Positions 1 through 37,282 of a DNA stretch of 64,000 bases are shown here, one piece after another (within the stretch, counting starts at the first letter, position 1; every line of letters begins with the position of its first letter). The position numbers and the translations under genes were made by a program. This DNA comes from an uncultured Acidobacteriota bacterium (GTDB lineage Bacteria > Actinomycetota > Acidimicrobiia > Spongiisociales > ZC4RG35), in contig CAVRWT010000006.1 in NCBI GenBank assembly GCA_963724825.1, positions 66,295 to 130,294 on the forward strand, read 5' to 3'. Under the pieces are notes generated by a model. The model was not told the DNA's origin and did no database searches. It worked only from the letters and a program-made list of their open reading frames with translations.

Positions 1-718
1 TTATGACCTTTCGCTCCGAGATCCCCTTGGAGCGGGCAGTCCGCATGTATTCGGAGTTCTTGACATCGAGCAATGAACTCCTCATGAACCGGCTGTAAAT
101 GGCGATGGTTTGGATGGCGATCACGGTGATCGGGAGGATCATGTGCTTGATCCGAAGCCAGAGGTCGAACTCTGTTTGGCCCGGCGGGTAGACCCCGGCC
201 ACGGGTAAGAAAGGTTTGTCTAGACCAAGCCACTGAGTGAGCAGGATCGCAAAGAACACCTGAAGCAGCACCGCCGTCACGAACGGCGGCATTGAAATCC
301 CGATGAAGGCTACCCCGGTGGCGGTCGTGTCGAACTTTGAGTACTGACGCAAGGCGGAGAGGATGCCGATACCCAACCCAAACGTGATCCCCACCACGAA
401 CGCCGAGAGACCTAACACCAGGCTGCGACCGAGGGCTTGCTTCAAGTCGGGCAGGACCGGGGTGTTTCCCTTGATCGAGTTCCCCCAATTGAGTGTGAAA
501 AAGTTGCCCAGCCAGCGGACGTACTGCTCGGGTGTGGAGCCAACGAGACCATTGGCTTCCTCGTAGGCGTGCACCATCTCAGGGGTGGCTCGGGGGTTGG
601 TGCGGAGAAAGCTCTGCACCGGGTCAGTAGCCGATTTCACTGCCCAAAAAGTGAGAAAGGTCACGATCAAGAGCACCGGGACTGCCCACGCGGTTCTGAC
701 GACTATGAACCTTGTCAT
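1..718 (-). CDS. ABC peptide-type transporter permease (DppB/OppB family), first 239 codons; 3' end lies outside the window
   Basis: My minus-strand translation from ATG 718..716 reads MTRFIVVRTAWAVPVLLIVTFLTFWAVKSATDP...RTARSKGISERKVI. By eye it is about three quarters identical to the permease at 18684-19665. It is missing from the ORF track because there is no stop inside the window. Confidence 0.85.
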   Translation of the reverse strand, partial: MTRFIVVRTAWAVPVLLIVTFLTFWAVKSATDPVQSFLRTNPRATPEMVHAYEEANGLVGSTPEQYVRWLGNFFTLNWGNSIKGNTPVLPDLKQALGRSLVLGLSAFVVGITFGLGIGILSALRQYSKFDTTATGVAFIGISMPPFVTAVLLQVFFAILLTQWLGLDKPFLPVAGVYPPGQTEFDLWLRIKHMILPITVIAIQTIAIYSRFMRSSLLDVKNSEYMRTARSKGISERKVI

Positions 719-3641: not shown

Positions 3642-5014
3642 GGGGCGACTGTCATCGCCCGATCCGGGCTGAGCAGGAACGGGGGGAGATAGGCCGGGAT
3701 GTTGGAGAACGGCAACACGTCGGGGTGCAAGTCGATGCCCAGGTTGTTGGCCATGAAATCTCGTCGTGCCCGAGTCCTCGCCCAGGCCTCCGGAAAGCGC
3801 TGGGAGAACGCAGCTCGCATGCTCTCGTCGGCGAGGGCGATGCCATCCTCGATGTTGGTGGTGAAGTAGTCGGTGCCGGTGGCCGGGATGATGTCGACCT
3901 GGAAGGCCATCCCCGACCGCGTTTCGACTTGCGAGCCGGGGCCGATCGGCGAGTTGACCCATTCGTCGAGGTGGATTTGATGACCCGGATTGAGGAAGAT
4001 CCCGAAGAAAGGGTCACCCAGGTGACGGTCGATGATCTCCTGGAACACCCCGCCCTGTTGGCCGATTCGCATCGCCGCATACCACTCGGCCACGGCTTCG
4101 AAATATGGGCCGACGAGTCGGTCGACGTAATCACTGATCTCTTCGGGCAGTTCGCCTGCATCCTCGACGACGAACCCGGCCCGACAGTTCAAGGCTCCCC
4201 ATATCCCGAAGGCGACAGTGAACCGATCTCCCCGCCCGATCGGGCGATCGCCCGGGCTCAGCAAGCCGAGGGACGCTCGTGGCCCAGCGGTGAGCATGAG
4301 GTGACAGGAGAGGGGCATCCCGTTCCACTCGAGAAGCCGGACCGCCTCCTGCTCGGTCATGCCTGGCTCCAAACCGAGCAGCAGGCGTCGCACGCCATTG
4401 GAGGTCTGGCAGGCCGCATATTCGAGGGCGGCAAGCTGCTCGACTTCGTTGATGACCCTCAACCCGTCCCCGGCGCCGATCAGAAGGTCATTGGCATTCT
4501 CCACGGTCCCGGTGGGACCGGTGAGCCGGCGCACGACATCGACGAGGAACGCGGGAACTTCCATCAGCTCGCGGTCGGAGTAGCTCTTCCAGCCAATCAT
4601 TCCCACATGGCTTCCGCGATGGATGCCCTCGTCAGCCAGGATCTCAGGCAACGGCTGTGAGCGGTGCCTGGGCTGGCCGGGGAGGCTGAGATCCTGATAC
4701 AGGTGCCGGCGCATAGTCAGCGGCGCCGCCCCGGCCATGCCGTAGCACTCGTTGCCGACGAGGATCGCCGGGTCGTCCGCTGGCCCCACGATCAAGACTG
4801 CCTCTTCGAAACGGGGGTCGAATCCTGTCAGATAGGAGAGATTGGCGCTGTGCTCGCGGTCGGCGTAGACGATCAAATGGTCATAGCCGCGCTCCAGGGC
4901 CCGTTCCCGGAGACTGGCCAGCCGATCCACATAGATCTGCGAAGGGATCTCGGGCATCGTCTCCGGCATCCCGAAGTCGGGAAGGGCGATCTCGGCGAGA
5001 CGTGCTCCGGTCAT
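3638..5014 (-). CDS. M24 family metallopeptidase-like protein (creatinase/Xaa-Pro aminopeptidase fold)
   Basis: ORF 3638-5083; the likely start is MTGARLAEIALPDFG at 5014, one base after the corrected stop of the upstream gene. It has a creatinase-like N-domain (YDHLIVYADREHSANLSYLTGF) and a pita-bread C-domain (FLNPGHQIHLDEW, FQVDIIP). Confidence 0.7.
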   Translation of the reverse strand: MTGARLAEIALPDFGMPETMPEIPSQIYVDRLASLRERALERGYDHLIVYADREHSANLSYLTGFDPRFEEAVLIVGPADDPAILVGNECYGMAGAAPLTMRRHLYQDLSLPGQPRHRSQPLPEILADEGIHRGSHVGMIGWKSYSDRELMEVPAFLVDVVRRLTGPTGTVENANDLLIGAGDGLRVINEVEQLAALEYAACQTSNGVRRLLLGLEPGMTEQEAVRLLEWNGMPLSCHLMLTAGPRASLGLLSPGDRPIGRGDRFTVAFGIWGALNCRAGFVVEDAGELPEEISDYVDRLVGPYFEAVAEWYAAMRIGQQGGVFQEIIDRHLGDPFFGIFLNPGHQIHLDEWVNSPIGPGSQVETRSGMAFQVDIIPATGTDYFTTNIEDGIALADESMRAAFSQRFPEAWARTRARRDFMANNLGIDLHPDVLPFSNIPAYLPPFLLSPDRAMTVAP

Positions 5015-7997: not shown

Positions 7998-9320
7998 ATG
8001 AGCGTGGTAGAGGCTGCCCCGTCCCAGCTGGAGACCCTGGAACCAGGTTCACGCAGGTCAGTTGGCTCCTTCCTGCGAGACAACGAGATCGACACCCGCA
8101 TGGTCGGGATGACTCTCATCCTCCTGGTGATCTGGGTCCTCTTTCACATCTTGTCGGGCGGAACCTTCCTCACCCCCCGCAACCTGTGGAACCTCTCGGT
8201 GCAGACTTCTTCGATTGCGATCATGGCCACCGGGATGGTGCTGGTGATCGTCTCCCGCAATATCGACCTCTCGGTGGGCTCGATGGTGGGCGTGGTCGGC
8301 ATGGTGATGGCCATCCTCCAATTCGAGTGGCTACCGCCCGTGTTGGGTCTCGGCAATCAGTGGATCTGGATCATCACACTCGCTGCCGGACTGGCTCTTG
8401 GGGCGCTGATCGGCGCCTTCCAGGGTTCGCTCATCGCCTATCTCGGGGTTCCGTCGTTCATCGTGACCCTGGGTGGATTGCTGGTATGGCGTGGGTTTGC
8501 CTGGCTGACCGCCAGCGGCCGGACTCTCGCCCCCATGGACGCCACTTTCCAACTCCTCGGGGGTGGGTCCCGCGGGTCGCTCGGTGAAACCGGAAGTTGG
8601 ATCGTTGGCGGGGTCGCGTGTATCGGAATCGTCGCCTTTCTCGTCGTGGGACGACGTCGTCGTCGCAAGTTCGGCTTCCACGTCAGGCCGATGTGGTTGG
8701 ATGCCGCTCTCGGTGTGATCGGCTGTGTGGTGGTGCTCGCCGCGGTATGGGTCACCAACAGCTACTACCTGCCCGAGAACCTCGCTCGGGCGGTCGCCGA
8801 GGAAAGGGGCATACCCTGGCCCGAGGGTGGTCTCCAGATCCCGCTCGGCATTCCCTATCCGGTCCTCATCCTCATCGGAGTCACATTGGTCATGAGCTTT
8901 GTCGCCAACCGGCTCCGCTTCGGGCGATACATCTTCTCGATTGGGGGCAATCCCGAGGCCGCGGTCCTGGCTGGAATCAAGACCAAGCGCACCATCGTCA
9001 GAACCTTCATGACCATGGGAATCCTCGTCGGGATCTCAGCCGCGGTCTCAATCGCCCGCCTCAATGCCGCGGTCAGCGGTCTTGGCACCCTGAATGAGCT
9101 CTATGTGATTGCGGCGGCGGTCGTCGGGGGCGCCTCCTTGGCTGGAGGGATCGGCACCATTCCCGGAGCCATCATCGGAGCCCTGGTCATGCAATCGCTC
9201 CAGTCCGGGATGGTGTCTCTCAAGGTCAGCGCTCCCGTGCAGGACGTGGTACTCGGGATCGTTCTCGTGACCGCAGTCGCAATCGACACCACCTTCCGGA
9301 GAAGGGCAGCCCAACGATGA
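7998..9320 (+). CDS. xylH: Xylose-type (CUT2) ABC transporter permease
   Basis: A 440-aa multi-TM ORF with the CUT2 permease signature ([16 protein letters not shown]). It sits directly between xylF and an ABC ATPase. Confidence 0.8.
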
Positions 9321-10111
9321 CAACCCCCTCAGCCCCAAAACCACCACTCGTAGAGATGAGGAACATGAGTGTTTCCTTCGGTGGGGTTCATGCGGTCAAG
9401 GATGTCACCATCACTCTCCGAGAAGGTGAAGTGCTCGGAGTAGTGGGGGGCAACGGAGCCGGCAAGTCGACCCTGATCAAGGTCTTGGCCGGTGCCCAGA
9501 AGGCCGACTCCGGTGAGATCTTCATCGACGGTGAGCCGGTGACCATCCACAGTCCACGCGACGCCAAGAATCTGGGGATCGAGACCATCTATCAGACCCT
9601 GGCCCTGGCCGACAACATCGACGCTCCGGGCAACATGTTCCTCGGCAGGGAGCTGACCACACGTTGGAACACCCTCGACGACTCCTCGATGGAGGCTGCC
9701 ACTCGGGAGATAATGGGGCGCCTCAATCCGAAGTTCCAAAACTTCAAGACGCCGGTTGCCTCACTCTCCGGTGGTCAGCGCCAGTCGGTCGCCATCGCCC
9801 GGGCCGTTCATTTCAACGCCAGGATCTTGATCATGGACGAGCCGACCGCGGCTCTGGGCCCGGCCGAGACCGAGCAGGTGCGAGAGTTGATCCGCCAACT
9901 GCAACGCGAGGGAATCGGGATCATCATGATCAGCCACGACATTCACGACGTGTTCGACCTGTCCGACCGGATCAGCGTCATGCTCCAGGGAAAGCTGGTG
10001 GGGACGGTGAACCGGGGTGAATGCACGATGGACGAGATCCTGGCCATGATCATCATCGGCAAGCTGCCAGACGAGGTCACCACCAAGGAGTTGGAACAAC
10101 TCCACGGTTGA
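9317..10111 (+). CDS. Sugar ABC transporter ATP-binding protein (single NBD)
   Basis: Walker [10 protein letters not shown], signature LSGGQRQ, Walker B ILIMDEPT. There is a 4-nt overlap with the permease gene. Confidence 0.85.
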
Positions 10112-26126: not shown

Positions 26127-26278
26127 AGAGGCTCCTCGGCTAGTTCGGGCCTCCATCGTATAGGTGCCCACGGAGGCCAGGCTCCGGGTGCCCGATCAGC
26201 ATTGGTAGGGCCACACGGCCTCATATTTTCACTCTCTGTTCACTTATCAACTCGTTCGCCGTCCGTTAGACCAGGGGT

Positions 26279-28111
26279 GTGAAGATTCTCCTGGCTGAGG
26301 ACGACCCCGTCGTCGGCGACGCCTTCGAATCGGCCCTGCGAGCCGGGTATCACTCGGTGCACCGGTCAACGGGTGTAGCCGACACCATTGGCCGTCTGGG
26401 GGACGGTGAGATCGAGGTCGTAATCCTCGACGTCCAATTGACGGATGGCACCGCCTGGGACGTCCTTGATCGGATCCCAAGCCCCCACCCTCCATTTCGT
26501 GTTTCGCTGGTGACAGCGGTGGATGTCGCGCCCCCCCAGCGCTGGGCTCATGTGCCTGTGTTTCGGAAGCCGTTGGATCATCAGGGCCTGATGACTGCAG
26601 TGGCCGAAGCCGTGCCCTACGGACGGTCCGACAGCTCTGAGGCCGGGGAGCCCGGGAGGCAGAACCTGATCGAGCGACTGCTCCTGGCTGACGAGCCCCC
26701 TCTAGTGGTCTCAGTCCCGGTGAGCCTGCTCGTGATCGCCCTCGTGACCCTGATATTGACGCCCATCAGGGAGGAGGCCTTCGGGGCGATCAGCGCTGGT
26801 TACTCCGTGGTCGTCCTTCTGATCGCCGCCTATGCAGGAATCGCGGTAGGCCTGGGTGGGGCGGTGATTGCCTTTCTGGCATACAACTTCTTCATGGTTC
26901 CGCCTCTGTACACGTTCGAGATCGCCTCGGCGCCCCTCGTGCTGAATCTGACCGCATTTCTGGTCGCGGCCGCGGTGGGCGCGATCCTCGTCGGAACGGG
27001 CCGAACTCTCTCCCGGAGGCAGACAAGTGACGCAGCCCTCACCCGCCTTCGCCTCCGCCTCCTCTCCCAGACCATCGATGTGTCGTCCGACCAGTTGATC
27101 GGTGTGATCACCCGCGTCATCAGGGAGGCCCTGCCTGACGAAACGTTGCTGGCCCTGGTGGAACCCGCTCAGGAGGCCCCGCCCTGGGTTCCTGCAGACT
27201 CGGCTGACCTGGCCCGCCGCGAGCGGCGGACCGTTGAAACACGATCAGACAACAGGCCGGTGCTGATACTTCCGGTTGACACCGAAGGCCTTCTCCTCGT
27301 GGCCAGCACGCCAGGCAACCGAATGACAGACCAGGATCGGAGAAGCCTGGGATTTGCATCGACTGAGCTCAGCCGGGTGTCCGAGCAGTTGGATCTGTTG
27401 AGGGCGGCGGAGGGGGCGGAGAAGCTCCAGGCCCGCGACGAAGCCAAGAATGCCCTGTTGGCCGCCGTCAGCCACGACCTGCGCACGCCGCTGGCCTCGA
27501 TGAAGGTGGCTGTGACCACTGTGCTGGAGCCGGACCTCAATCTGTCCGACGCCCAAACCCGTCACCTGTTGGAGACGGTCGATGGCGAGGTAGATCGCTT
27601 GGCAGGCATGATCGACCACCTGCTCGACCTGTCTCGACTCGAGAGCGGAGCCTTCCAACTGAGCCACGACCATGTGGACGTGACGCACCTGGTTCGCGAC
27701 GCCGCCGATCGGGTTCAACTCGCATCGGGCCGGCAAATCGAGGTCACCTCGGCTGGCTCGACGGAGGTAATCGGCGATTCGGTTCGATTGCTGGAGGTCG
27801 TCACCAACCTGATCGACAACGCGGCGCGCTATTCGACTCCGGGCACTCCGATCCTCGTCACCATCCGCTCTGAGGAGGGCTCCGTGCTCGTGGCTGTCAG
27901 CGACGACGGCCCCGGGATGACCCGCGAAGAGCAGGACAAGCTCTTCCGACCGTTCACCCGTGGGCCGAGGTCCGGCAGCGGAAGCGGGCTCGGCCTTGCC
28001 ATCACCCGCTCGATCGTCAGCGCTCACGGCGGGAGCATCGAGGTCGTTTCGAGCCCGGGCACCGGGACAACGATGTCAGTGAGCATCCCAAAGCGGGCCC
28101 TCCATGAGTGA
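26279..28111 (+). CDS. Hybrid sensor kinase: N-terminal receiver + KdpD-type membrane domain (DUF4118-like) + HisKA + HATPase_c
   Basis: The REC domain has EDD, ILDVQLTDG, LVTA and FRKP. Four TM helices include AFLAYNFFMVPPLYTF, typical of the KdpD membrane core. H-box AAVSHDLRTPL; N/G boxes NLIDNAARYS, DDGPGM, GSGLGL. No KdpD N-terminal or Usp domain is present. Confidence 0.8.
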   Translation: MKILLAEDDPVVGDAFESALRAGYHSVHRSTGVADTIGRLGDGEIEVVILDVQLTDGTAWDVLDRIPSPHPPFRVSLVTAVDVAPPQRWAHVPVFRKPLDHQGLMTAVAEAVPYGRSDSSEAGEPGRQNLIERLLLADEPPLVVSVPVSLLVIALVTLILTPIREEAFGAISAGYSVVVLLIAAYAGIAVGLGGAVIAFLAYNFFMVPPLYTFEIASAPLVLNLTAFLVAAAVGAILVGTGRTLSRRQTSDAALTRLRLRLLSQTIDVSSDQLIGVITRVIREALPDETLLALVEPAQEAPPWVPADSADLARRERRTVETRSDNRPVLILPVDTEGLLLVASTPGNRMTDQDRRSLGFASTELSRVSEQLDLLRAAEGAEKLQARDEAKNALLAAVSHDLRTPLASMKVAVTTVLEPDLNLSDAQTRHLLETVDGEVDRLAGMIDHLLDLSRLESGAFQLSHDHVDVTHLVRDAADRVQLASGRQIEVTSAGSTEVIGDSVRLLEVVTNLIDNAARYSTPGTPILVTIRSEEGSVLVAVSDDGPGMTREEQDKLFRPFTRGPRSGSGSGLGLAITRSIVSAHGGSIEVVSSPGTGTTMSVSIPKRALHE

Positions 28112-28472
28112 GACGCGGCGGGTACTGGTCGTGGAAGACGACGTTCGTTTCGGCTCGCTGTTGTGCGAGGTCCTGCAGGCCGCCGGTCACACGGCGGAAC
28201 TTGCCCCCACCAGTGCCGCCGCACTCGCGGCCATCGAGGCCAAGGTGCCCGACGTGTTGTGCGTCGACATCGACCTCCCTGATGGAACGGGGTGGGAGCT
28301 CCTCGATGAGCTGGAGCGGCGCGGCATCGAGCCCGACACCGTCGTCGTGACCTCCGCCAGCATCGGGGCATCGAAGACCAGGCACCGCCCGGGCACTTTC
28401 ATCCTCCCCAAGCCTTTCCCCGTCGACTCGTTGTTGCGTCTCGTCAACGGAGACCAACTACCCGAAATCTGA
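28104..28472 (+). CDS. Single-domain (CheY-like) response regulator
   Basis: 122 aa with VVEDD, CVDIDLPDG, VVTSA and LPKPF, and no output domain. Overlaps the kinase gene by 8 nt. Confidence 0.8.
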   Translation: MSETRRVLVVEDDVRFGSLLCEVLQAAGHTAELAPTSAAALAAIEAKVPDVLCVDIDLPDGTGWELLDELERRGIEPDTVVVTSASIGASKTRHRPGTFILPKPFPVDSLLRLVNGDQLPEI

Positions 28473-28496: not shown

Positions 28497-28580
28497 ATGG
28501 ACGACCTGTTGGTAGCACTCGTGTCCCTGGGAAGCGGACTGGTGTTATGGGGCCTTTATGAAGCTTGCCGGAGAGCCTGA
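28497..28580 (+). CDS. 27-aa hydrophobic peptide ORF, translationally coupled to kdpF (function unknown)
   Basis: My translation: MDDLLVALVSLGSGLVLWGLYEACRRA. A purine-rich stretch (AAGAAAGAGAAAGAAG) precedes the ATG. Its TGA overlaps the kdpF ATG (TGATG). Not in the ORF track (too short). Confidence 0.35.
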   Translation: MDDLLVALVSLGSGLVLWGLYEACRRA

Positions 28581-28669
28581 TGAGAACAGGTGAGTGGCTG
28601 CTTCTGGTAGTGAGTCTCTTGACCGCCATCTTCCTGGTGCTCGCGCTTTGGAAGCCGGAGAAGTTCTGA
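28580..28669 (+). CDS. kdpF: K+-transporting ATPase subunit F
   Basis: My translation: MRTGEWLLLVVSLLTAIFLVLALWKPEKF (29 aa, single TM, typical P-E-x-F end). Its TGA overlaps the kdpA ATG (TGATG). Confidence 0.7.
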   Translation: MRTGEWLLLVVSLLTAIFLVLALWKPEKF

Positions 28670-30378
28670 TGGGCACCGGATTGCTGTTGATGCTGATTTA
28701 TCTGGTAGTGGTCACCGCGGTGGCCATCCCCCTCGGCCGCTATCTGGCGGCCGTCTACAACGGGACCAATCGGCGCAGCCAGCGCTGGCTGGGATGGCTT
28801 GAGCGTGGCATCTATCGCCTATTGCGGGTGGACCCCGAGAGCGAGCACACCTGGAAGGCCTATGCCGGTGGGTTGCTTGCTTTCAACGCGGTTGGATTCG
28901 TCGTCCTCTACATACTGTTGCGGGCTCAGGGGTCTCTACCTCTCAACCCCCAGGGTTTGCCCGGGGTTCCCCCGTGGATCGCTTTCAACACTGCTGTCAG
29001 TTTCGTGACCAACACCAACTGGCAGGCCTACGGCGGAGAATCGACCATGTCGTATCTGTCGCAGATGGCGGGACTCAGCGTGCAGAACTTCGTGTCGGCA
29101 GCTGTGGGTATGGCCGCTGCGGCCGCTCTCATCAGAGGGATTGCCCGACGCAGCACCGATCGAATCGGCAACTTCTGGGTCGACCTGGTTCGCTCCAACC
29201 TCTACGTCCTGTTGCCACTGGCGACTGTTATTGCGCTCTTCTTCGTCAGCCAGGGCATGGTCCAGAAGTTCGATCCCTACGTCGAAGCGACGACCGTAGA
29301 GGGTGCCAGTCAGGTGATACCCCTCGGCCCGGCCGCAAGCCAGATCTCGATCAAGGACATCGGCACCAATGGCGGCGGGTTCTTCAACGCCAACTCGGCA
29401 CACCCGTTCGAAAACCCAACTCCGCTGTCCAACGCGGTGATCGTGGTCGCCATGCTCGCCATCTCAGGAGGCTTCGTATTCGCATACGGTCGAATGGTCG
29501 GCCGGCCCAAGGAGGGCTATGCGATCTATGCCGCGATGGCGCTCATCTTCGTCGTTATGACTGTCGGCGCTGTGGTCAATGAAACCGGGAGCGCAGGCGC
29601 AGCCGAAGGCTCCGGTGCCAACGTCGCCGCCTCGATCGATTCCCCGGGCGGGAACATGGAGGGCAAAGAAGTCAGATTTGGCCCGGCGGAGAGCGCGATC
29701 TATGCCTCGGTGACCACCAGCCTCTCCAATGGTTCGGTGAACTCTTCTCACGACTCGTTCACACCGATGGGTGGCGCCGTTCCCATGGTCAACATGATGC
29801 TTGGCGAGGTGGTGTTCGGGGGGGTCGGCGTCGGCCTGAATGGGATGTTGGTCTTCGTCATCCTCACTGTCTTCATAGCTGGTCTCATGGTGGGTCGCAC
29901 CCCGGAGTGGCTGGGCAAGAAGATCGAGGGCGGAGACGTCAAGCTGGCGGTGGTGGCGACCATTGCCCCCCAAATGGCGGTTCTGATCCTGGCCGGCATC
30001 GCCGCCGGCACCTCGATCGGGAGGGCTGGGATCTTCAACCCCGTGCCCCACGGATGGTCGGAAATCCTGTACGGGTACACCTCCGGGGGCAACAACAACG
30101 GTTCTGCCTTCGGTGGCCTTGGATCGGGCCAGACCTTCTACGCGATCACCGTCGGATTGGCGATGATCGTGGGGCGCTTCTTCACGCTGATCCCGGTCCT
30201 CGCCCTGGCCGGGCGCTTGGCCGGGCGCAAGGCCAGTGAGAGCGTCACCGAGGCCACGTTCCGCACCAATGGCCCCCTCTTTGTTGTGCTTCTCCTGGCG
30301 ATCGTCGTGATTGTTGGAGCGCTCACCTTCCTACCCGCTCTTGCGCTCGGTCCGATCGTGGAAGCGCTGAGCATTTGA
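28669..30378 (+). CDS. kdpA: K+-transporting ATPase subunit A
   Basis: ORF 28594-30378 from MGTGLLLMLIYLVV. It contains KdpA selectivity-filter-like segments (NTNWQAYGGE, GTNGGGF, NNGSAFGG). Confidence 0.95.
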   Translation: MGTGLLLMLIYLVVVTAVAIPLGRYLAAVYNGTNRRSQRWLGWLERGIYRLLRVDPESEHTWKAYAGGLLAFNAVGFVVLYILLRAQGSLPLNPQGLPGVPPWIAFNTAVSFVTNTNWQAYGGESTMSYLSQMAGLSVQNFVSAAVGMAAAAALIRGIARRSTDRIGNFWVDLVRSNLYVLLPLATVIALFFVSQGMVQKFDPYVEATTVEGASQVIPLGPAASQISIKDIGTNGGGFFNANSAHPFENPTPLSNAVIVVAMLAISGGFVFAYGRMVGRPKEGYAIYAAMALIFVVMTVGAVVNETGSAGAAEGSGANVAASIDSPGGNMEGKEVRFGPAESAIYASVTTSLSNGSVNSSHDSFTPMGGAVPMVNMMLGEVVFGGVGVGLNGMLVFVILTVFIAGLMVGRTPEWLGKKIEGGDVKLAVVATIAPQMAVLILAGIAAGTSIGRAGIFNPVPHGWSEILYGYTSGGNNNGSAFGGLGSGQTFYAITVGLAMIVGRFFTLIPVLALAGRLAGRKASESVTEATFRTNGPLFVVLLLAIVVIVGALTFLPALALGPIVEALSI

Positions 30379-30414: not shown

Positions 30415-32493
30415 ATGAACGGTGAATCCCCCTCGATACCCAAGATCCCTGGTCGGTCCAGACGCGACCTGAGCAACCCCGGTGCGTTCCAAAGGGATTT
30501 GGTTCGCGACGCGGTTGGCGCGTCCTTCGCAAAACTGAACCCGACCACTCTCTACAAGAACCCGGTCATGTTCACGGTGGAGATCGGGGCGGTGATAAGC
30601 AGCATCATGGCCATTGTCCGCGGCACAGATGGAGATCCGGCCACTGGGGTCGGATTCGCGATCTGGATCTCGGCGTGGTTGTGGTTCACGGTGCTATTCG
30701 CCAATTTCGCCGAGGCACTGGCCGAGGCCCGTGGAAAGGCTCAAGCGGAGAGCCTGCGGGCGACCCGGGCATCGACTTCGGCGCGCCGAATCAAGAACGG
30801 CAGCTTCGAAATGGTCGACTCCACTGCCTTGCGGGCCGGCGACCTGGTCCGGGTGGAATCGGGTGAGCTCATTCCCAGCGATGGCGAAGTGGTCGAAGGC
30901 GTCGCCTTTGTCAACGAGGCCGCCATCACCGGAGAGTCGGCTCCCGTGCTCAAGGAGCCGGGCACGGACATCCGCTCGTCAGTGACCGGGGGGACAACAC
31001 TGACCTCGGACTGGCTTGTGATCAAGATCACGGCCAACCCTGGTGAGACCTTCCTCGACCGGATGATCGCGTTGGTCGAAGGCGCCAATCGCCAGAAGAC
31101 ACCAAATGAGATCGCGCTTTCCCTTCTGCTGACGGGTCTGACGCTGGTGTTCCTGGTGGTATGTGTTGCCCTGTTCCCGGTCACAACGTTGGTGACGCCG
31201 GAGAGCCCGGCCGATCCGGTCGTTCTGGTCGCCCTATTCGTGACATTGATCCCGACCACTATCGGTGGCCTGCTGTCTGCCATCGGCATTGCCGGTATGG
31301 ACCGGGTCACCAGATTCAACGTCATGGCGACCTCGGGAAAGGCGGTCGAAGCGGCCGGTGATTGCGACACATTGCTCCTCGACAAGACCGGCACCATCAC
31401 TTTTGGAAACCGGCTCGCCTCTGCCTTCTGGCCTCTGTCAGGAGTGACTGAGCAGGAGCTGGCGCAAGCCGCGGCTCGTACCTCATATGCCGACGAGACC
31501 CCGGAAGGCCGTTCGATTGTCACCCTTGCCCAGGAGAAGGGTGTCTTTGGCGAAGCGGAGCCTGGAGACGAATTCGTCGAATTCTCAGCCGCGACACGCC
31601 TGTCCGGGGTCCGTTATGCGGGTGGCGAGACGTGGAAAGGCGCGGGCACCGCGATTCGCGGCCTGGTTCCGGACGCCCCGCCCGAGTTGGAGGACCTTGC
31701 GGAGCGGGTTGCCGGCCGGGGTGCCACCCCATTGTCGGTCGCTGCCAATGGGAGGGCGCTCGGGGTGATCGAGCTCTCCGACACGGTCAAACCCGGTTTG
31801 TCGGAGCGCTTCAATCTCCTCCGCCGTCTGGGAATCCGGACCGTCATGATCACAGGCGACAACCGGCTCACCGCCTCGGTGATCGCCGAGCAAGCGGGTG
31901 TTGACGACTTTCTGGCCGAGGCAACGCCGGAGGACAAGCTCGATCTGATTCGCAAGGAACAGACCGGGGGACGTTTGGTGGCAATGACCGGTGACGGCAC
32001 AAACGATGCTCCTGCCCTGGCTCAGGCAGATGTGGGCCTCGCCATGAACTCGGGCACGGCGGCCGCCAAGGAGGCGGCCAACATGGTCGATCTCGACTCT
32101 GATCCCACGAAGATCATCGAGGTAGTCCGCATCGGCAAGGAATTGCTGATGACGAGGGGCGCCGTCACCACGTTCTCGATCGCCAATGACGTGGCTAAGT
32201 ACTTCGCCATCATCCCGGCGATGTTCGCTGCAGTCCTGCCTGCTCTCGACTCGCTCAACGTCATGAGGCTGGGAACACCGCAATCCGCGATCGTGTCGGC
32301 GGTGATATTCAACGCATTGATCATCGTGGCGCTGGTGCCGCTGTCCCTGAGGGGGGTGCGAACCAAGGCAAGAGGAGCCAGTTCGATCCTCTATCGCAAC
32401 TTGCTCATCTATGGAGTGGGCGGCCTGATTGTTCCCTTCATCGGGATCAAGGCCATCGACATGGTTCTGAATACGACTGAGTGGTTCTCATGA
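30415..32493 (+). CDS. kdpB: K+-transporting ATPase subunit B (P-type ATPase)
   Basis: [11 protein letters not shown] phosphorylation motif, [22 protein letters not shown] hinge; 692 aa. Confidence 0.95.
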
Positions 32494-33047
32494 AACAAGT
32501 GATACGTGCCTTTGTGGCTCTGATGGTCCTCACCGTCCTGCTCGGGTTCGGCTACCCCCTCCTGGTGACAGGAATCGCTGGAGTGTTCTGGGCCGACGAA
32601 GCCGGCGGCTCTTTGATCGAGCGCGACGGTGCGGTTGTCGGGAGTGAGCTGTTGGCACAGCCCTTCACCAGCGATTCCTACTTTTGGCCGCGACCGTCGG
32701 CCTCCGGGTACAACGCCAATCCGGAGCTCGATCCGAACACTCGCTCGCTCTCATATCCGTCGAATCTGGGGCCGCAGAATCCGGACTTGAAGATGGCGAT
32801 CGTCGACCTGGTCATCGCCTATGGGGACGGAGTCCCGGTTGACCTGGTTACTGGCTCCGGGTCGGCCCTCGATCCCCACATCTCAGTTGCTGCGGCACAA
32901 TGGCAAGCCCACAGGGTCGCTGCGACCCGTGGTCTCGACGAGGCTGAAGTGCTTGCTCTGATCGACCAACATATCGAGTCATGGATCGGGCGCCGTTACG
33001 TGAACGTGCTGATGTTGAATCTCGCTCTGGATCAGACCTCCGGTTGA
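32490..33047 (+). CDS. kdpC: K+-transporting ATPase subunit C
   Basis: MKQVIRAF...GYPLLVTG N-terminal TM helix, and [10 protein letters not shown], typical of KdpC. The ATG overlaps the kdpB TGA (ATGA). Confidence 0.9.
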
Positions 33048-34196
33048 GCGCCGACCTCGAGCGAGATCAGAAGGTGGCGCGGGCTTTGGCCCGTGCCGCG
33101 GGTGACGCGGTCGACGGGCGGGGGTGGCTCACCGTTTATCTCGGCTTTGCTCCGGGGGTGGGCAAGACCTACGCGATGCTCCGAGCGGTCCACGAGCTCA
33201 AGAAGGAAGGCAAAGATGTGGTCGTTGGGTTCGTCGAGACGCACGGTCGGACCGACACTGCGGCCTTGCTCGAGGGTCTCGAGGTCCTGCCGCGAAAGGT
33301 AGTGAATCACCAGGGAGTTCCTGTTGAGGAGCTCGACCTGGAAGCAATCCTCGCCCGCGCTCCAGCGATCTGCGCCATCGACGAGCTGGCCCATACCAAT
33401 GCCCCGGGGAGCCCACGTGAGAAGCGGTATGAGGACGTCAATCTCGTTCTCGACGCGGGCATCGACGTCCTGACAACTCTCAACATCCAGCACCTCGAGA
33501 GCCTCAACGACGTCGTCGAATCCATCGCCGGCGTCAAGGTGAGGGAGCGAATCCCCGACGAGGTGCTCGATGATGCCGACGAGTTCATCCTGGTCGATGT
33601 CTCCGCAGAGGAGCTACGGGATCGGCTCCAACAGGGCAAGGTGTACCCATCGGAGTCGGCAAGGCGGGCCCTCGAGCATTTTTTCCGGCCGGGCAACCTC
33701 AATGCACTTCGTGAGCTCGCGCTGATGCGCACTGCCCGCAACGTCGAGCGAGAGCTCGGTGCATACATGTCGGCGCATGGAATCGAATCGCCCTGGCGAT
33801 CGACGGAACGGATCATGGCCTGTGTCGACGAGACCGAAACCGGGGAGACCGTGGTGCGTCGCGGATTCCGCCTCGCCAATGCATCGCGTGGCGAGTTCTT
33901 CGTGCTCACCGTCGGTCTTGACCGGGTTAGCCCCAGTCAAGTTGGCCCGATCAAGCGGACTCTTGCTATAGCCCGCGACCTGGGAGCGACGGTGGTCACG
34001 CGCGACGGAGGGGGGCGCGAGGTGGCGAGCGAGATCATCGCCGCTGCCCGAGAGCTCGAAGGCCACGCTGGTGATCATGGGCCCATCTCATCGGACTCTC
34101 TGGGAGAAGCTCCGGGGCGGTGACATCATCGACCACGTGGTGTCGGGCCTCCGCGACGTAGATGTGCTTGTCATCGGTCTGGCCGAGATCGAATAG
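33044..34196 (+). CDS. Stand-alone KdpD sensor half (KdpD N-terminal domain + Usp domain, no membrane or kinase part); 1-nt insertion at about 34061
   Basis: LTVYLGFAPGVGKTYAML (Walker-A-like), VVGFVETHGR, IDELAHTN and NIQHLESLND are the hallmark KdpD N-domain blocks, followed by a Usp-like segment. After AARELE the frame fails and the +1 frame gives ATLVIMGPSHRTLWEKLRGGDIIDHVVSGLRDVDVLVIGLAEIE, ending at the stop 34194-34196. TTG 33044 overlaps the kdpC TGA. Confidence 0.8.
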
Positions 34197-34222
34197 CCGA
34201 CTCTTGGCAGAATGGCAGCCTC

Positions 34223-34888
34223 TTGCCGACCATCCTCATCGCCGACGACGATCCCGGGCTGCTCGACACAGTGGCCATGCTGCTCGAGGCTTCTGGCTAC
34301 GAGGTGCACACCGCGGGCTCTGCGACAGAAGCACTCGACGGTTGGCCTCGCGTTCACCCCGACCTGGTGATCGTCGACCTCCATATGCCTGGTGGGGGCA
34401 TGGAGCTGGTGACCGCCATCAGCAGTCACACCTCGACTCCGGTGATCGTCCTCTCGGGCGACGTCGACGAATCGGTGAAGGTGGCCGCTCTCGATGCCGG
34501 AGCCGAGGACTATGTGACCAAGCCGTTCTCGGCAGCTGAGCTGTTGGCACGAGTCAGGGTGGCGTTGCGTCGCACTGAGCCTGGTACCAAAGCGATCACG
34601 GTTGGTGAACTGACCCTGTCAGAGCCGGAGCTGACGGCGTCCGCGGGCAAAGGGTCTGTGAAGCTGACCCCGACCGAATTCGATCTGCTCAGGGCAATGG
34701 CGCTTGCCGACAGTTTTGTGGCGACCAATGACCTGCTCAACCAGGTATGGGGCCCCGCATATCGAACCGAACAAGAGTATGTCCGTGTCTACGTCCGACG
34801 TCTGCGAGGCAAGCTCGATTCGCTCGGCCTCACCAACGCCATCGAGTCACGACCGGGGCTCGGATATCGCCTTGTGGGCAGCGAATAG
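34223..34888 (+). CDS. kdpE: OmpR-family response regulator (KdpE-like)
   Basis: REC domain (ADDD, IVDLHMPGG, VLSG, TKPF) plus a winged-helix output domain (LTPTEFDLLRAM, YVRVYVRRLRGKL, GLGYRL). It is the last gene of the kdp operon. Confidence 0.8.
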   Translation: MPTILIADDDPGLLDTVAMLLEASGYEVHTAGSATEALDGWPRVHPDLVIVDLHMPGGGMELVTAISSHTSTPVIVLSGDVDESVKVAALDAGAEDYVTKPFSAAELLARVRVALRRTEPGTKAITVGELTLSEPELTASAGKGSVKLTPTEFDLLRAMALADSFVATNDLLNQVWGPAYRTEQEYVRVYVRRLRGKLDSLGLTNAIESRPGLGYRLVGSE

Positions 34889-34891
34889 CTG

Positions 34892-37282
34892 TCAGCTATC
34901 AGTCGGACTGCTCTGGTCCGGTGAGGGAGAGGAGGTGGGTTCGGGATCCGACGAGGTCGACTCCACTGCTTCACCTTTCCTGGCGCGGCGCCAGTCGGGG
35001 TCGAGGTGGAACGGGACACTGGTCACCGCGATCCCGACCTCCGCGGCGAGGATGCCCTTGATGGCGAGCCCGGTTTGGTTGTGGAGGATCTGGGTGATTC
35101 GCCCGGGCACCACGAACTCGGGGATGACCGCGCAGATGAGCGTTCCCGGGAGGGCTCTTCGACGCCGCTCACGGAGATAGTTGACGAGTGGGTCGACGAT
35201 TTCCCGAAATGGGCTGGCAACGATCTCGAGGGGGAAGTCATACCCCGACGCCTTCCAGTGATGCTCAACACGCTCTCGTTGTGCGCTGTCGACATCGATG
35301 TGGATGGCGGTCGTCGGAGTTCCGAGACCTTGGGCATAGGTGAGAGCCTCCCGGATCGGTCTCGTCATGTCCGAGATCAGCACTACTTGCTCGACGTGGC
35401 TGATCGACATACGGGGCAGGCGGCTGCGTCGGGATCGCTTGAGCACGTTCAGGTCGGTTACCACCACCTGGGGCTCGAACAGAAGGCGCGCCTTCACGGC
35501 AAGGCTGTGTGGATGAGAGAATGGGCTGAGGATCGAGGACCACGTTCGAAGCTGTTCTCCGAGGACGACGGTGATGGCCGTATCGGGATGGGTGTCTCTT
35601 TCCTGGCGGACACGCTCCACGATCCTGCGTGAGATCGATTCGTGCTCACCTGGAAGGATCTCGAGGGGAAACGTGGGATGCACCCGATCCCAGGTGTAGA
35701 CGAGGTCGTCCGAACCCTGCTCCTCGGCATGAACACAAGTGATCGCCTCGGCGTTGAGGAGGGACACGTATTGGATAGCCCGATCGGTTCGCTCATCCGG
35801 GTGGGCCACCAACACCAGGAATCTCACTGGTCGGGGATGAGCATCGACGCGGATGTGCCTCAGTTGGGCGGCAACTCCGAGGTAGTGGCGGCGGATCGCA
35901 AGCATCAAGGACACCAGCAGCGGGATGAGAATGATCACGATCCAGGCACCGTGGGAGAACTTGACCGTGGCAACCACGATCAGGACCACCCCAGTGGTGA
36001 CCGCCCCGACGCCATTGATGACGACCGACCACCTCCAATTCGGCTCCCTGGTCTTGAGCCAATGCTTGACCATGCCGGTTTGGCTCAGGGTGAACGAAGT
36101 GAACACACCGACCACGTAGAGCTGGATGAGACGGCTCACCTCGGCCTGAAAGATCAGCAACAAGACCGAGGCGACGAATGCGAGGGTGATGACCCCGTTC
36201 GAGAAGACCAGTCGATCGCCTCGGTTCAGGTACTGACGCGGCATCAGCCTCGATCGCGCCAGGATTGCGGAGAGTCTCGGGAAGTCCTGGTAGGCAGTGT
36301 TCGCCGCCAGGATCAAGATGGCGGCGGTGAAGACCTGGAGAAGGTAGAACCCGATTCCGCCCTCGAACGTCGCCCTCCCGATCTGTGAGATGACGGTCCC
36401 GTACTCGTCGATGGTGTCCTCGGAGATGCGAACGTCGAACAACTGCGCAAGGGTCGAGATACCGAGGAACATGGTTATCGAGATCGCTCCCATGATCGCG
36501 AGCGTCCTGGCCGCGTTCTGGGCCTTTGGCGCCTTGAACGCCTGCACCCCATTGGCCACCGCCTCGACTCCGGTCAGCGCAGTCGAACCGGAGGCAAAAG
36601 CCCGGAGTATCAGAAACAGGCTGACGACGCCCAGCTCGGCCTCCAGTTCGATTCCGGACGAAACGGCCGTTGGGCATACGCCATCGAGACATTTGACGAA
36701 TCCCATCACGAGCATGATCGCCACCATCACGATGAACAGATAGGTGGGGGCCGCAAAGATCCGAGATGCCTCCCTGACCCCCCTCAGGTTGGTAACCGTG
36801 AGCAACACCACGAATCCGAGCGACAGCTCAACCCGCCACGAAATGAGACCGGGGGCTGCGGAGGTGATGGCCGCGACTCCTGCCGCCACGGAAACCGAAA
36901 CTGTGAGCACGTAGTCGATGAGGAGTGCCGCCGCGGCAACCGCCCCGGTCCGGATCCCCAGATTCTCACTGGCGACGATGAAGGCTCCTCCACCATCGGG
37001 GTATGCCCTGATCGTCTGTCGGTAGGACACGATGACGATCAGCAACAGCGTGGCAACAGCCAGCGAAACAGGGGTCAGATAGGCATATGCCGCGGTGCCG
37101 GCGAGGGCGAGCACGAGCATTGCCTCCTCGGTGGCATAGGCCACGGAGGACAGCGGGTCGGATGCGAAGACGGGAAGCGCGAACCGCTTGGGTAGGAGTT
37201 GGTGATCCTCCTCACTGGTGGCGAGCGGTCTCCCGAACAGCCTGCGCTTGGTCCAGAAACCGCGGACTGGCCTGGTGCTCAC
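34892..37282 (-). CDS. APC-superfamily permease with a large (~300 aa) C-terminal cytoplasmic domain
   Basis: 796 aa. The N-terminal ~480 aa form a 12-TM APC-like core (FASDPLSSVAYATEE, GGGAFIV). The C-terminal soluble region is of unknown function. Confidence 0.7.
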   Translation of the reverse strand: MSTRPVRGFWTKRRLFGRPLATSEEDHQLLPKRFALPVFASDPLSSVAYATEEAMLVLALAGTAAYAYLTPVSLAVATLLLIVIVSYRQTIRAYPDGGGAFIVASENLGIRTGAVAAAALLIDYVLTVSVSVAAGVAAITSAAPGLISWRVELSLGFVVLLTVTNLRGVREASRIFAAPTYLFIVMVAIMLVMGFVKCLDGVCPTAVSSGIELEAELGVVSLFLILRAFASGSTALTGVEAVANGVQAFKAPKAQNAARTLAIMGAISITMFLGISTLAQLFDVRISEDTIDEYGTVISQIGRATFEGGIGFYLLQVFTAAILILAANTAYQDFPRLSAILARSRLMPRQYLNRGDRLVFSNGVITLAFVASVLLLIFQAEVSRLIQLYVVGVFTSFTLSQTGMVKHWLKTREPNWRWSVVINGVGAVTTGVVLIVVATVKFSHGAWIVIILIPLLVSLMLAIRRHYLGVAAQLRHIRVDAHPRPVRFLVLVAHPDERTDRAIQYVSLLNAEAITCVHAEEQGSDDLVYTWDRVHPTFPLEILPGEHESISRRIVERVRQERDTHPDTAITVVLGEQLRTWSSILSPFSHPHSLAVKARLLFEPQVVVTDLNVLKRSRRSRLPRMSISHVEQVVLISDMTRPIREALTYAQGLGTPTTAIHIDVDSAQRERVEHHWKASGYDFPLEIVASPFREIVDPLVNYLRERRRRALPGTLICAVIPEFVVPGRITQILHNQTGLAIKGILAAEVGIAVTSVPFHLDPDWRRARKGEAVESTSSDPEPTSSPSPDQSSPTDS

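Follow-up and report, generated by a model that had tools for sequence, protein, structure and literature searches.

KdpD and KdpE form a textbook two-component system. The pair has recently been redefined as a tandem serine/histidine kinase (PMC11018627). In that study, Silberberg et al. determined in 2024 that KdpB is phosphorylated at S162 by the KdpD-N domain, an atypical serine kinase, and that in some species the KdpD/Usp serine kinase and the transmembrane (TM)/GAF/DHpCA histidine kinase are found on separate chains, with the serine-kinase chain staying behind the pump (PMC11018627). The same split was described by Dani et al. in 2017 for Deinococcus radiodurans and cyanobacteria (PMC5716572), in a text in which the word "receiver" does not occur. 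Here we examine the kdp locus in a 64,000-nucleotide (nt) stretch of contig CAVRWT010000006.1 (the window, meaning the whole stretch that was analysed). In this locus a split KdpD is accompanied by two accessory receivers, one fused to the N-terminus of the membrane histidine kinase (REC1) and one encoded as a stand-alone single-domain protein between the kinase gene and the pump genes (REC2). The reading that we favor, with a probability of about 0.6, is that the locus is a single kdp operon of an Acidimicrobiia type in which the kinase feeds a KdpE-like regulator and the two receivers act as a sink or brake.

A first, sequence-only reading of this DNA had taken the scheme as a whole to be undescribed. 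As far as was found this holds for the two accessory receivers as part of Kdp control, but not for the split KdpD, which is already published. Targeted full-text searches of the literature found neither REC-DUF4118 kinases nor single-domain regulators of kdp clusters treated in any paper. The window resembles the published split systems in having a separate KdpD-N/Usp gene directly behind kdpC, a separate membrane kinase with DUF4118, GAF-like and DHp-CA parts, an OmpR-family regulator in the cluster, Walker A and B motifs in KdpD-N, and the TGES motif in KdpB. It differs from them (D. radiodurans kdpBAC-kdpD-N, Anabaena L-31) in that a fused receiver and REC2, the latter between the kinase and kdpF, have been added. 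Additionally, the kinase and regulator of D. radiodurans are encoded in a separate divergent operon whereas the window has one apparent co-directional operon. With canonical KdpD/KdpE (E. coli, Mycobacterium; NF007793) the window shares a homologous TM/GAF/DHp/CA core, a position adjoining kdpFABC, and an OmpR-family partner; canonical KdpD, however, carries KdpD-N and Usp on the kinase chain, while in the window the kinase and REC2 lie upstream of kdpFABC and two extra receivers are present.

The two reading frames on which the sequence-only reading was built, encoding products of 610 and 122 amino acids (aa), were both recovered at the positions given for them, with an 8-nt overlap (Table 1). 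They are upstream of kdpFABC on the same strand, and the gene for the KdpE-like regulator is further downstream, as had been proposed. The KdpD-type membrane and catalytic core of the 610-aa kinase was confirmed by Pfam matches to DUF4118 (residues 148-249, 51 bits), HisKA (389-457, 55 bits), and HATPase_c (499-606, 104 bits), and the nearest relatives outside its own family are canonical full-length KdpDs that are 31-43% identical, mostly with 67-76% of the query aligned. H399, the N-box, and the G1 and G2 boxes are invariant among 31 homologues. The GAF domain is seen solely as a small alpha/beta domain in the AlphaFold2 model; in L072 and L050, two related split kinases, Pfam does find a GAF domain. 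A sequence search of the kinase against the PDB returned DHp-CA fragments only, and a whole-model Foldseek search of the PDB returned mostly DHp-CA matches, uninformative for the N-terminal and TM parts, along with LvrB structures. Neither the KdpD (PF02702) nor the Usp domain was detected in the kinase by Pfam. Both are present in the separate protein encoded after kdpC, so the earlier proposal that a receiver had replaced the KdpD-N/Usp sensor does not hold.

The proposal of an N-terminal receiver with all acceptor residues fared better, even though REC1 is sub-threshold in Pfam. The Response_reg match to residues 3-82 reaches 23.9 bits, where the gathering score is 30.2, and takes in only positions 1-80 of the 111-position profile. 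The first 262 residues of 12 family members were made into a profile, and in the PDB this matched solved receivers only (AdeR and others), with E values of ~1e-7. In the AlphaFold2 model of the kinase, which was built on a 31-sequence alignment and has a mean predicted local distance difference test score (pLDDT) of 78, residues 1-115 adopt a (beta/alpha)5 fold in the order b1-a1-b2-a2-b3-a3-b4-(short a4)-b5-a5 with a degenerate alpha4. The pLDDT of the blocks that make up REC1 is mostly 79-88, with one block at 71. D51, K97-P98, and D56-G57-x-A59-W60 are invariant in the 31 homologues (54-92% identity), E7-D8-D9 is kept in every homologue with a complete N-terminus, and position 79 is always T or S. 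Despite the Pfam score, the N-terminus of the kinase is a real receiver with an intact acceptor pocket. In the model REC1 joins TM1 through a disordered linker of ~20 residues, and because the membrane part has four TM helices, an even number, REC1 would be located on the cytoplasmic side together with DHp-CA.

REC2 scores above the Response_reg gathering score of 30.2 (Table 1). The 8 nt by which its open reading frame (ORF) overlaps the 3' end of the kinase gene are consistent with translational coupling, and 24 purine-rich nt separate it from the next ORF. In 26 sequences collected with the window's REC2 as query, E11, D12, D55, and K103-P104-F105-P106 are invariant and the loop motif is D-I-D/N-L-P-D-G/R-T/S-G-W; the fuller signature is DI[DN]LPD[GR][TS]GW ... 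LPKPFP[ILV][DE][SA]L. With ~120 aa, both motifs, and a gene that comes directly before kdp(F)A in a cluster of the split-kdp type, the REC2 of the window has all of the features by which the Kdp-associated subfamily is defined. Single-domain response regulators that serve as phosphate sinks or kinase modulators, such as those of the MrrA/LovR type, have been described (PMC5964349), and a response-regulator-like protein has been found to inhibit CckA directly in a negative feedback loop (PMC9430884). REC2 is like the sink-type regulators in that it has no output domain and its gene lies beside, and is probably translationally coupled to, that of a kinase that also has a DNA-binding partner, and it is unlike the MrrA/LovR type in belonging to a distinct Kdp-linked sequence subfamily that is known here from sequence alone.

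Close relatives of REC2 co-occur with the fused REC1 kinase, and a second tier (36-44% identity) is annotated as Dehalococcoidia. The clusters L051, L053, and L050 contain a kinase (DUF4118-[GAF]-HisKA-HATPase_c), a KdpE-like regulator, a REC2-type receiver, kdp(F)ABC, and KdpD-N, and no N-terminal receiver was detected by Pfam in the kinases of these cluster types. Metagenome sequences were scanned with the REC2 alignment and then annotated by tblastn, which resulted in 39 loci that match it at 60 bits or more. A kdp gene of some kind is present in 22 of these 39 loci, most of the others being too short to tell, and kdpA is within 1.5 kb in 17 of the 26 loci that have at least 900 nt downstream. 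REC2 is, by its predicted family and gene context, a Kdp-dedicated protein and a more general feature than the fused REC1.

The metagenome split-kdp cluster L074 encodes two REC2-type receivers, one at 3910-4323 between the kinase and the KdpE-like gene and the other at 9269-9748 just upstream of kdpA, which implies that receiver duplication has occurred more than once.

The fused kinase has a far narrower distribution. A protein search returned a tight family of ~600-632 aa (P0001-P0036, 54-92% identity), beyond which the score falls from 642 to 196 bits where the canonical KdpDs begin. Its members are mostly from metagenome sequences and the one named entry is from an Acidimicrobiia metagenome-assembled genome (MAG). 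In a scan of GTDB species representatives, five MAG records (L005-L009) contained complete or partial matches, of which four are labeled Acidimicrobiia and the fifth Acidobacteriota, and an exhaustive HMMER search over 1.84 billion representatives found the combination of receiver and DUF4118 in one full-length cluster plus fragments. A broad REC-DUF4118 family was rejected on these counts of five MAG records and one full-length representative cluster; the fused kinase is confined to a narrow Acidimicrobiia clade. The gene order of the window (kinase, receiver, kdpF, A, B, C, KdpD-N/Usp, KdpE-like) recurs in five independent contexts (L001, L002/L003, L004, and L135). Three of these types of context differ from one another in their flanking genes.

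As for its origin, REC1 resembles REC2-type receivers (E 4e-7 against the window's REC2 and E 2e-9 against the receiver of L050) more closely than it does the KdpE receiver (E 2e-3). When the REC1 profile was compared with all of the library representatives, the single-domain receivers that matched it best (P0219, P0204, and P0266) proved to score 83-125 bits against the REC2 profile, and P0219 directly follows a KdpE-like gene. Because the receivers that best match REC1 are strong REC2-profile matches, we infer that REC1 derived from the Kdp-associated stand-alone receiver lineage and was then fused ahead of TM1.

Two observations concern the records themselves. The record labeled Acidobacteriota (L005, CAVZVJ010000002.1) encodes a kinase that is 80% identical to that of the window, and most other labeled members are Acidimicrobiia MAGs; its label may be wrong. 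On the ERZ250395xx contigs (L001 12525-16201; L049 4533-10032) kdpA and kdpB are split or fused and kdpD is broken, consistent with indel errors; apparent gene splits on those contigs call for caution. L049, which at first resembled another split system, was not counted as one: its ORFs for KdpD-N and the kinase overlap, its error-prone assembly has a single gene call for kdpA and kdpB, and it is probably a frameshifted canonical kdpD.

The serine of the TGES motif in E. coli KdpB is the target of the KdpD-N serine kinase (PMC11018627). The motifs that define this kinase and its target were taken from the same study: Walker A G-X5-GKT, an aromatic residue after GKT, Walker B D-E, and the KdpB TGES serine (PMC11018627). 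All of them can be read in the window, where the KdpD-N chain has Walker A GFAPGVGKT-Y, Walker B IDELAH, and VRERIPD, and KdpB has TGES (ITGESAP), so that the two proteins are a predicted serine kinase and target. The chain has a strong KdpD-N match and a weak Usp match in Pfam, and its NCBIfam model, NF038185, is named "KdpD-like non-kinase potassium sensor". Comparison with homologues places its start probably at the TTG at 33044, overlapping the kdpC stop, and the stand-alone gene occupies the same position behind the pump in L002, L004, and L135. When compared with these three loci the window has one extra G (GAGCTC-G-AAGG, ~34057) that causes a frameshift and removes the last ~45 aa of Usp (KATLVIMGPSHRTLWEKLRGGDIIDHVVSGLRDVDVLVIGLAEIE*), which are readable only in another frame; the gene is intact in L135. 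Either the extra G was introduced in sequencing or the regulatory Usp domain is truncated in this particular strain.

The match of kdpF to TIGR02115 (24.7 bits) is slightly below the cut-off of 26.85, while its position and its ...LWKPEKF ending fit. The stop codon of a 27-aa peptide gene overlaps the kdpF start (TGATG). The peptide, which has no NCBIfam match, is conserved as 27-30 aa with the pattern [ED]DLLV..L..LW..Y..C[RG]RA (L002 12184-12276, L004 12133-12216), and in L001 it and kdpF make up a single, fused reading frame. Possible roles for it are those of a leader peptide of the kdp operon and of a second small membrane subunit. A small ORF is also present in the receiver clusters L051 and L053. 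In Dehalococcoidia-type clusters a conserved protein of 94-135 aa (..ELRELQHR...FEDWTRMLRAACRMLVL..) is encoded between the receiver and kdpF (L051 10381-10665, L053 10390-10797, L052 500-784), where the window has the 27-aa peptide, and it has no Pfam match.

The genes of the cluster overlap or are separated by no more than ~36 nt. The upstream regions of eight loci are divergent in alignment except for one island, TTTTCACnCnCTGTTCACTT. The direct repeat of the window (Table 1) is present as a single exact copy in the 64 kb; it is found at the same relative position in L001, L004, L005, L007, and L008 and as a variant in L135. In each of the eight aligned loci a hexamer of the TAC/TAG/GAC type precedes the start codon by exactly 6 nt, and in the window it is 23 nt past the second repeat. 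Both the box and the hexamer at its fixed spacing are restricted to the region ahead of the kinase gene. The repeat and hexamer have the layout expected of an OmpR/PhoB-type activator at a leaderless actinobacterial promoter, with the repeat as the candidate binding box of the KdpE-like protein, which is the sole DNA-binding regulator in the cluster. A hexamer 6 nt before the GTG would imply a leaderless or very short-leader transcript, the transcription start being deduced from it. Together these features indicate that the genes from the kinase through the KdpE-like regulator probably form one leaderless, regulator-dependent operon. Two scans of the window were not used as evidence: terminator-like sites were found only at chance level, and a sigma-70 consensus promoter scan found none. 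Riboswitch control of the kdp operon is unsupported, as an Rfam scan of the whole window found neither a ydaO-type (cyclic di-AMP, c-di-AMP) element nor any other riboswitch. Directly ahead of the start of the kdpE-like gene, the motif TTGGCAGAATGG is present in the window (34198-34222), L135 (17913-17944), and L002 (17918-17949). As an internal promoter it was dropped, being kept only in these three closest loci and in neither L001 nor L004; an internal promoter or translation signal peculiar to this lineage is one possibility.

Under the reading that we favor, low K+ would be sensed through the TM/GAF core as in KdpD, and the membrane kinase would autophosphorylate at H399 and phosphorylate the KdpE-like regulator. 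The regulator would then bind TTTCAC-N5-GTTCAC and drive the whole leaderless operon, resulting in positive autoregulation. Separately, high K+ would lead the KdpD-N/Usp chain, as a serine kinase, to switch KdpB off, in the way published for E. coli and Deinococcus. Both REC2 and REC1 would be further acceptors of the membrane kinase, REC1 being a putative fused relative of REC2 on the cytoplasmic side, where canonical KdpD carries KdpD-N/Usp. Since both receivers would be co-induced with the operon, they probably drain or feed back on the phosphoryl flow, as a sink or as an allosteric brake, which would set a threshold and curb overshoot of the autoregulatory loop. A sink or brake against positive autoregulation is the most economical reading.

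Part of the same evidence could also be accounted for by a relay, in which REC2~P (and REC1 in cis) would not be sinks and would hand the kinase's K+ signal on, either to KdpB or to the now separate KdpD-N/Usp serine kinase, restoring the transcriptional/post-translational coupling that is covalent in full-length KdpD. Wherever enough sequence is available, the clusters with REC2-type receivers have a kinase chain of their own and, apart from it, a KdpD-N gene behind kdpC, and REC1 is at the exact pre-TM1 position at which canonical KdpD attaches KdpD-N/Usp. We nevertheless consider a relay unlikely: the published Deinococcus and Anabaena split systems are described with a kinase and a regulator only, and the Usp domain offers another input, c-di-AMP. 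The classical phosphorelay that the sequence-only reading had suggested is unsupported in cis, as no HPt family match was found by Pfam in any of the cluster proteins scanned. Stated more widely, the idea would be that split Kdp in at least two phyla holds an unrecognized third signaling protein, a dedicated single-domain receiver with a copy fused to the kinase, at the place of KdpD-N/Usp, in one Acidimicrobiia clade, that signals the K+-sensing state of the kinase to KdpD-N/Usp or KdpFABC and not to DNA. This we regard as doubtful; if it were true, histidine-aspartate signaling would directly gate the post-translational inhibition of the pump.

It is also rather improbable that REC1 is an input, phosphorylated by an unlinked kinase or by acetyl phosphate, that switches the kinase in response to a second signal. 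Histidine kinases governed by N-terminal receivers that act on DHp-CA are an established class with LvrB as an example (PMC13269768), and the acceptor pocket of REC1 is invariant, the kinase model matches LvrB in the PDB, and both proteins have a phosphorylatable N-terminal receiver and DHp-CA on one chain. LvrB, however, is soluble, and alpha5 of its receiver is continuous with a signaling helix into DHp (PMC13269768). In the model of the window kinase there is no such helix, and what lies between the receiver and DHp is first the disordered linker, then the four TM helices and the GAF-like domain. Furthermore, there is no second kinase in the conserved cluster, and the nearest relatives of REC1 are Kdp-associated stand-alone receivers found beside the same type of kinase. 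A pseudo-receiver with a structural or dimerization role and no phosphorylation would fit the sub-threshold Pfam score of REC1, its coverage of profile positions 1-80 only, and its degenerate alpha4, but all five pocket positions (E/D-D, D51, T/S79, and K97) are conserved down to 54% identity, which is unexpected for a pseudo-receiver and makes this explanation very unlikely. That the kinase and REC2 are an independent pair with their own regulon, to which kdp is a mere neighbor, is hardly credible. In its favor, the pair lies ahead of kdpFABC instead of behind it, and REC2 lacks an output domain; yet the arrangement recurs where the flanking genes are unrelated, only 24 nt lie between REC2 and the next ORF with a terminator signal that is not above chance, the kinase is the sole one in a cluster with a KdpE-like regulator and has a core closest to KdpD, and relatives of REC2 are linked to kdp in other lineages too.

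Several points weigh against the sink or brake operon that we favor. The KdpE-like regulator scores 137 bits against the NCBIfam KdpE equivalog, the cut-off of which is 325, and the MtrA and PhoB models score higher; because the cut-off is not reached, the assignment as KdpE rests on the conserved gene context. The candidate box resembles no published KdpE site, with the published sites also being dissimilar among species. The Pfam score of REC1, below the gathering score, and its lack of a normal alpha4 point to an atypical output face. If the extra base is not a sequencing error, the frameshift in the KdpD-N/Usp gene may leave this strain with an impaired post-translational arm. Finally, all of the steps from the kinase to its acceptors are proposed from sequence, and the computation fits a sink, an allosteric, or a relay role alike.

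A receiver subfamily that travels with split kdp, together with its natural fusion to the kinase, is a candidate for the link between the split kinase activities or for a built-in brake. The stand-alone receiver recurs in Dehalococcoidia and in many metagenome contigs and the fused one in a narrow Acidimicrobiia clade; surveys of kdp regulation that rely on KdpD and KdpE annotations alone overlook this recurrent component. The coordinates of the features are included in Table 1.

Table 1. Features of the kdp locus, in positions of the window; parts of the kinase are also given by residue
Feature	Position	Strand	Description and evidence
Kinase chain (split KdpD)	26279-28111	+	GTG start, 610 aa; Pfam, AlphaFold2, family alignment, PDB matches to DHp-CA
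Kinase REC1	residues 1-115 (26279-26623)		D51 at 26429-26431
Kinase linker	residues 117-132		disordered, low-confidence in AlphaFold2 model
Kinase TM region	residues 142-265		four TM helices (DUF4118)
Kinase GAF-like domain	residues 270-345		small alpha/beta domain in model
Kinase DHp	residues 351-455		H399 at 27473-27475
Kinase CA	residues about 464-606		
REC2, stand-alone single-domain receiver	28104-28472	+	122 aa; Pfam Response_reg 49.4 bits
27-aa hydrophobic peptide gene	28497-28580	+	MDDLLVALVSLGSGLVLWGLYEACRRA; conserved in L001, L002, L004
kdpF	28580-28669	+	29 aa; NCBIfam TIGR02115 potass_kdpF, E 1.7e-5
kdpA	28669-30378	+	Pfam KdpA 756 bits
kdpB	30415-32493	+	Pfam E1-E2_ATPase and Hydrolase
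kdpC	32481-33047	+	Pfam KdpC 189 bits
Stand-alone KdpD-N + Usp chain	33044-34197	+	Pfam KdpD 304 bits; NCBIfam NF038185 353 bits
KdpE-like OmpR-family regulator	34223-34888	+	Pfam Response_reg 94 bits, Trans_reg_C 56 bits
Direct repeat TTTCAC-N5-GTTCAC	26227-26243	+	11-bp register; candidate regulator box
-10-like hexamer TAGACC	26267-26272	+	6 nt ahead of GTG start

The kdp cluster is flanked upstream by a divergent ferritin gene and downstream by a convergent gene for an APC-family permease (Pfam). The permease has 796 aa (34892-37282, minus strand), with AA_permease_2 at residues 44-441 and a weak K_trans/Kup-like match, and no family match was found by Pfam in its C-terminal ~350 residues. 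It is also encoded beside the cluster of the closest relative (L135 18627-21008) and may be another K+-related transporter.

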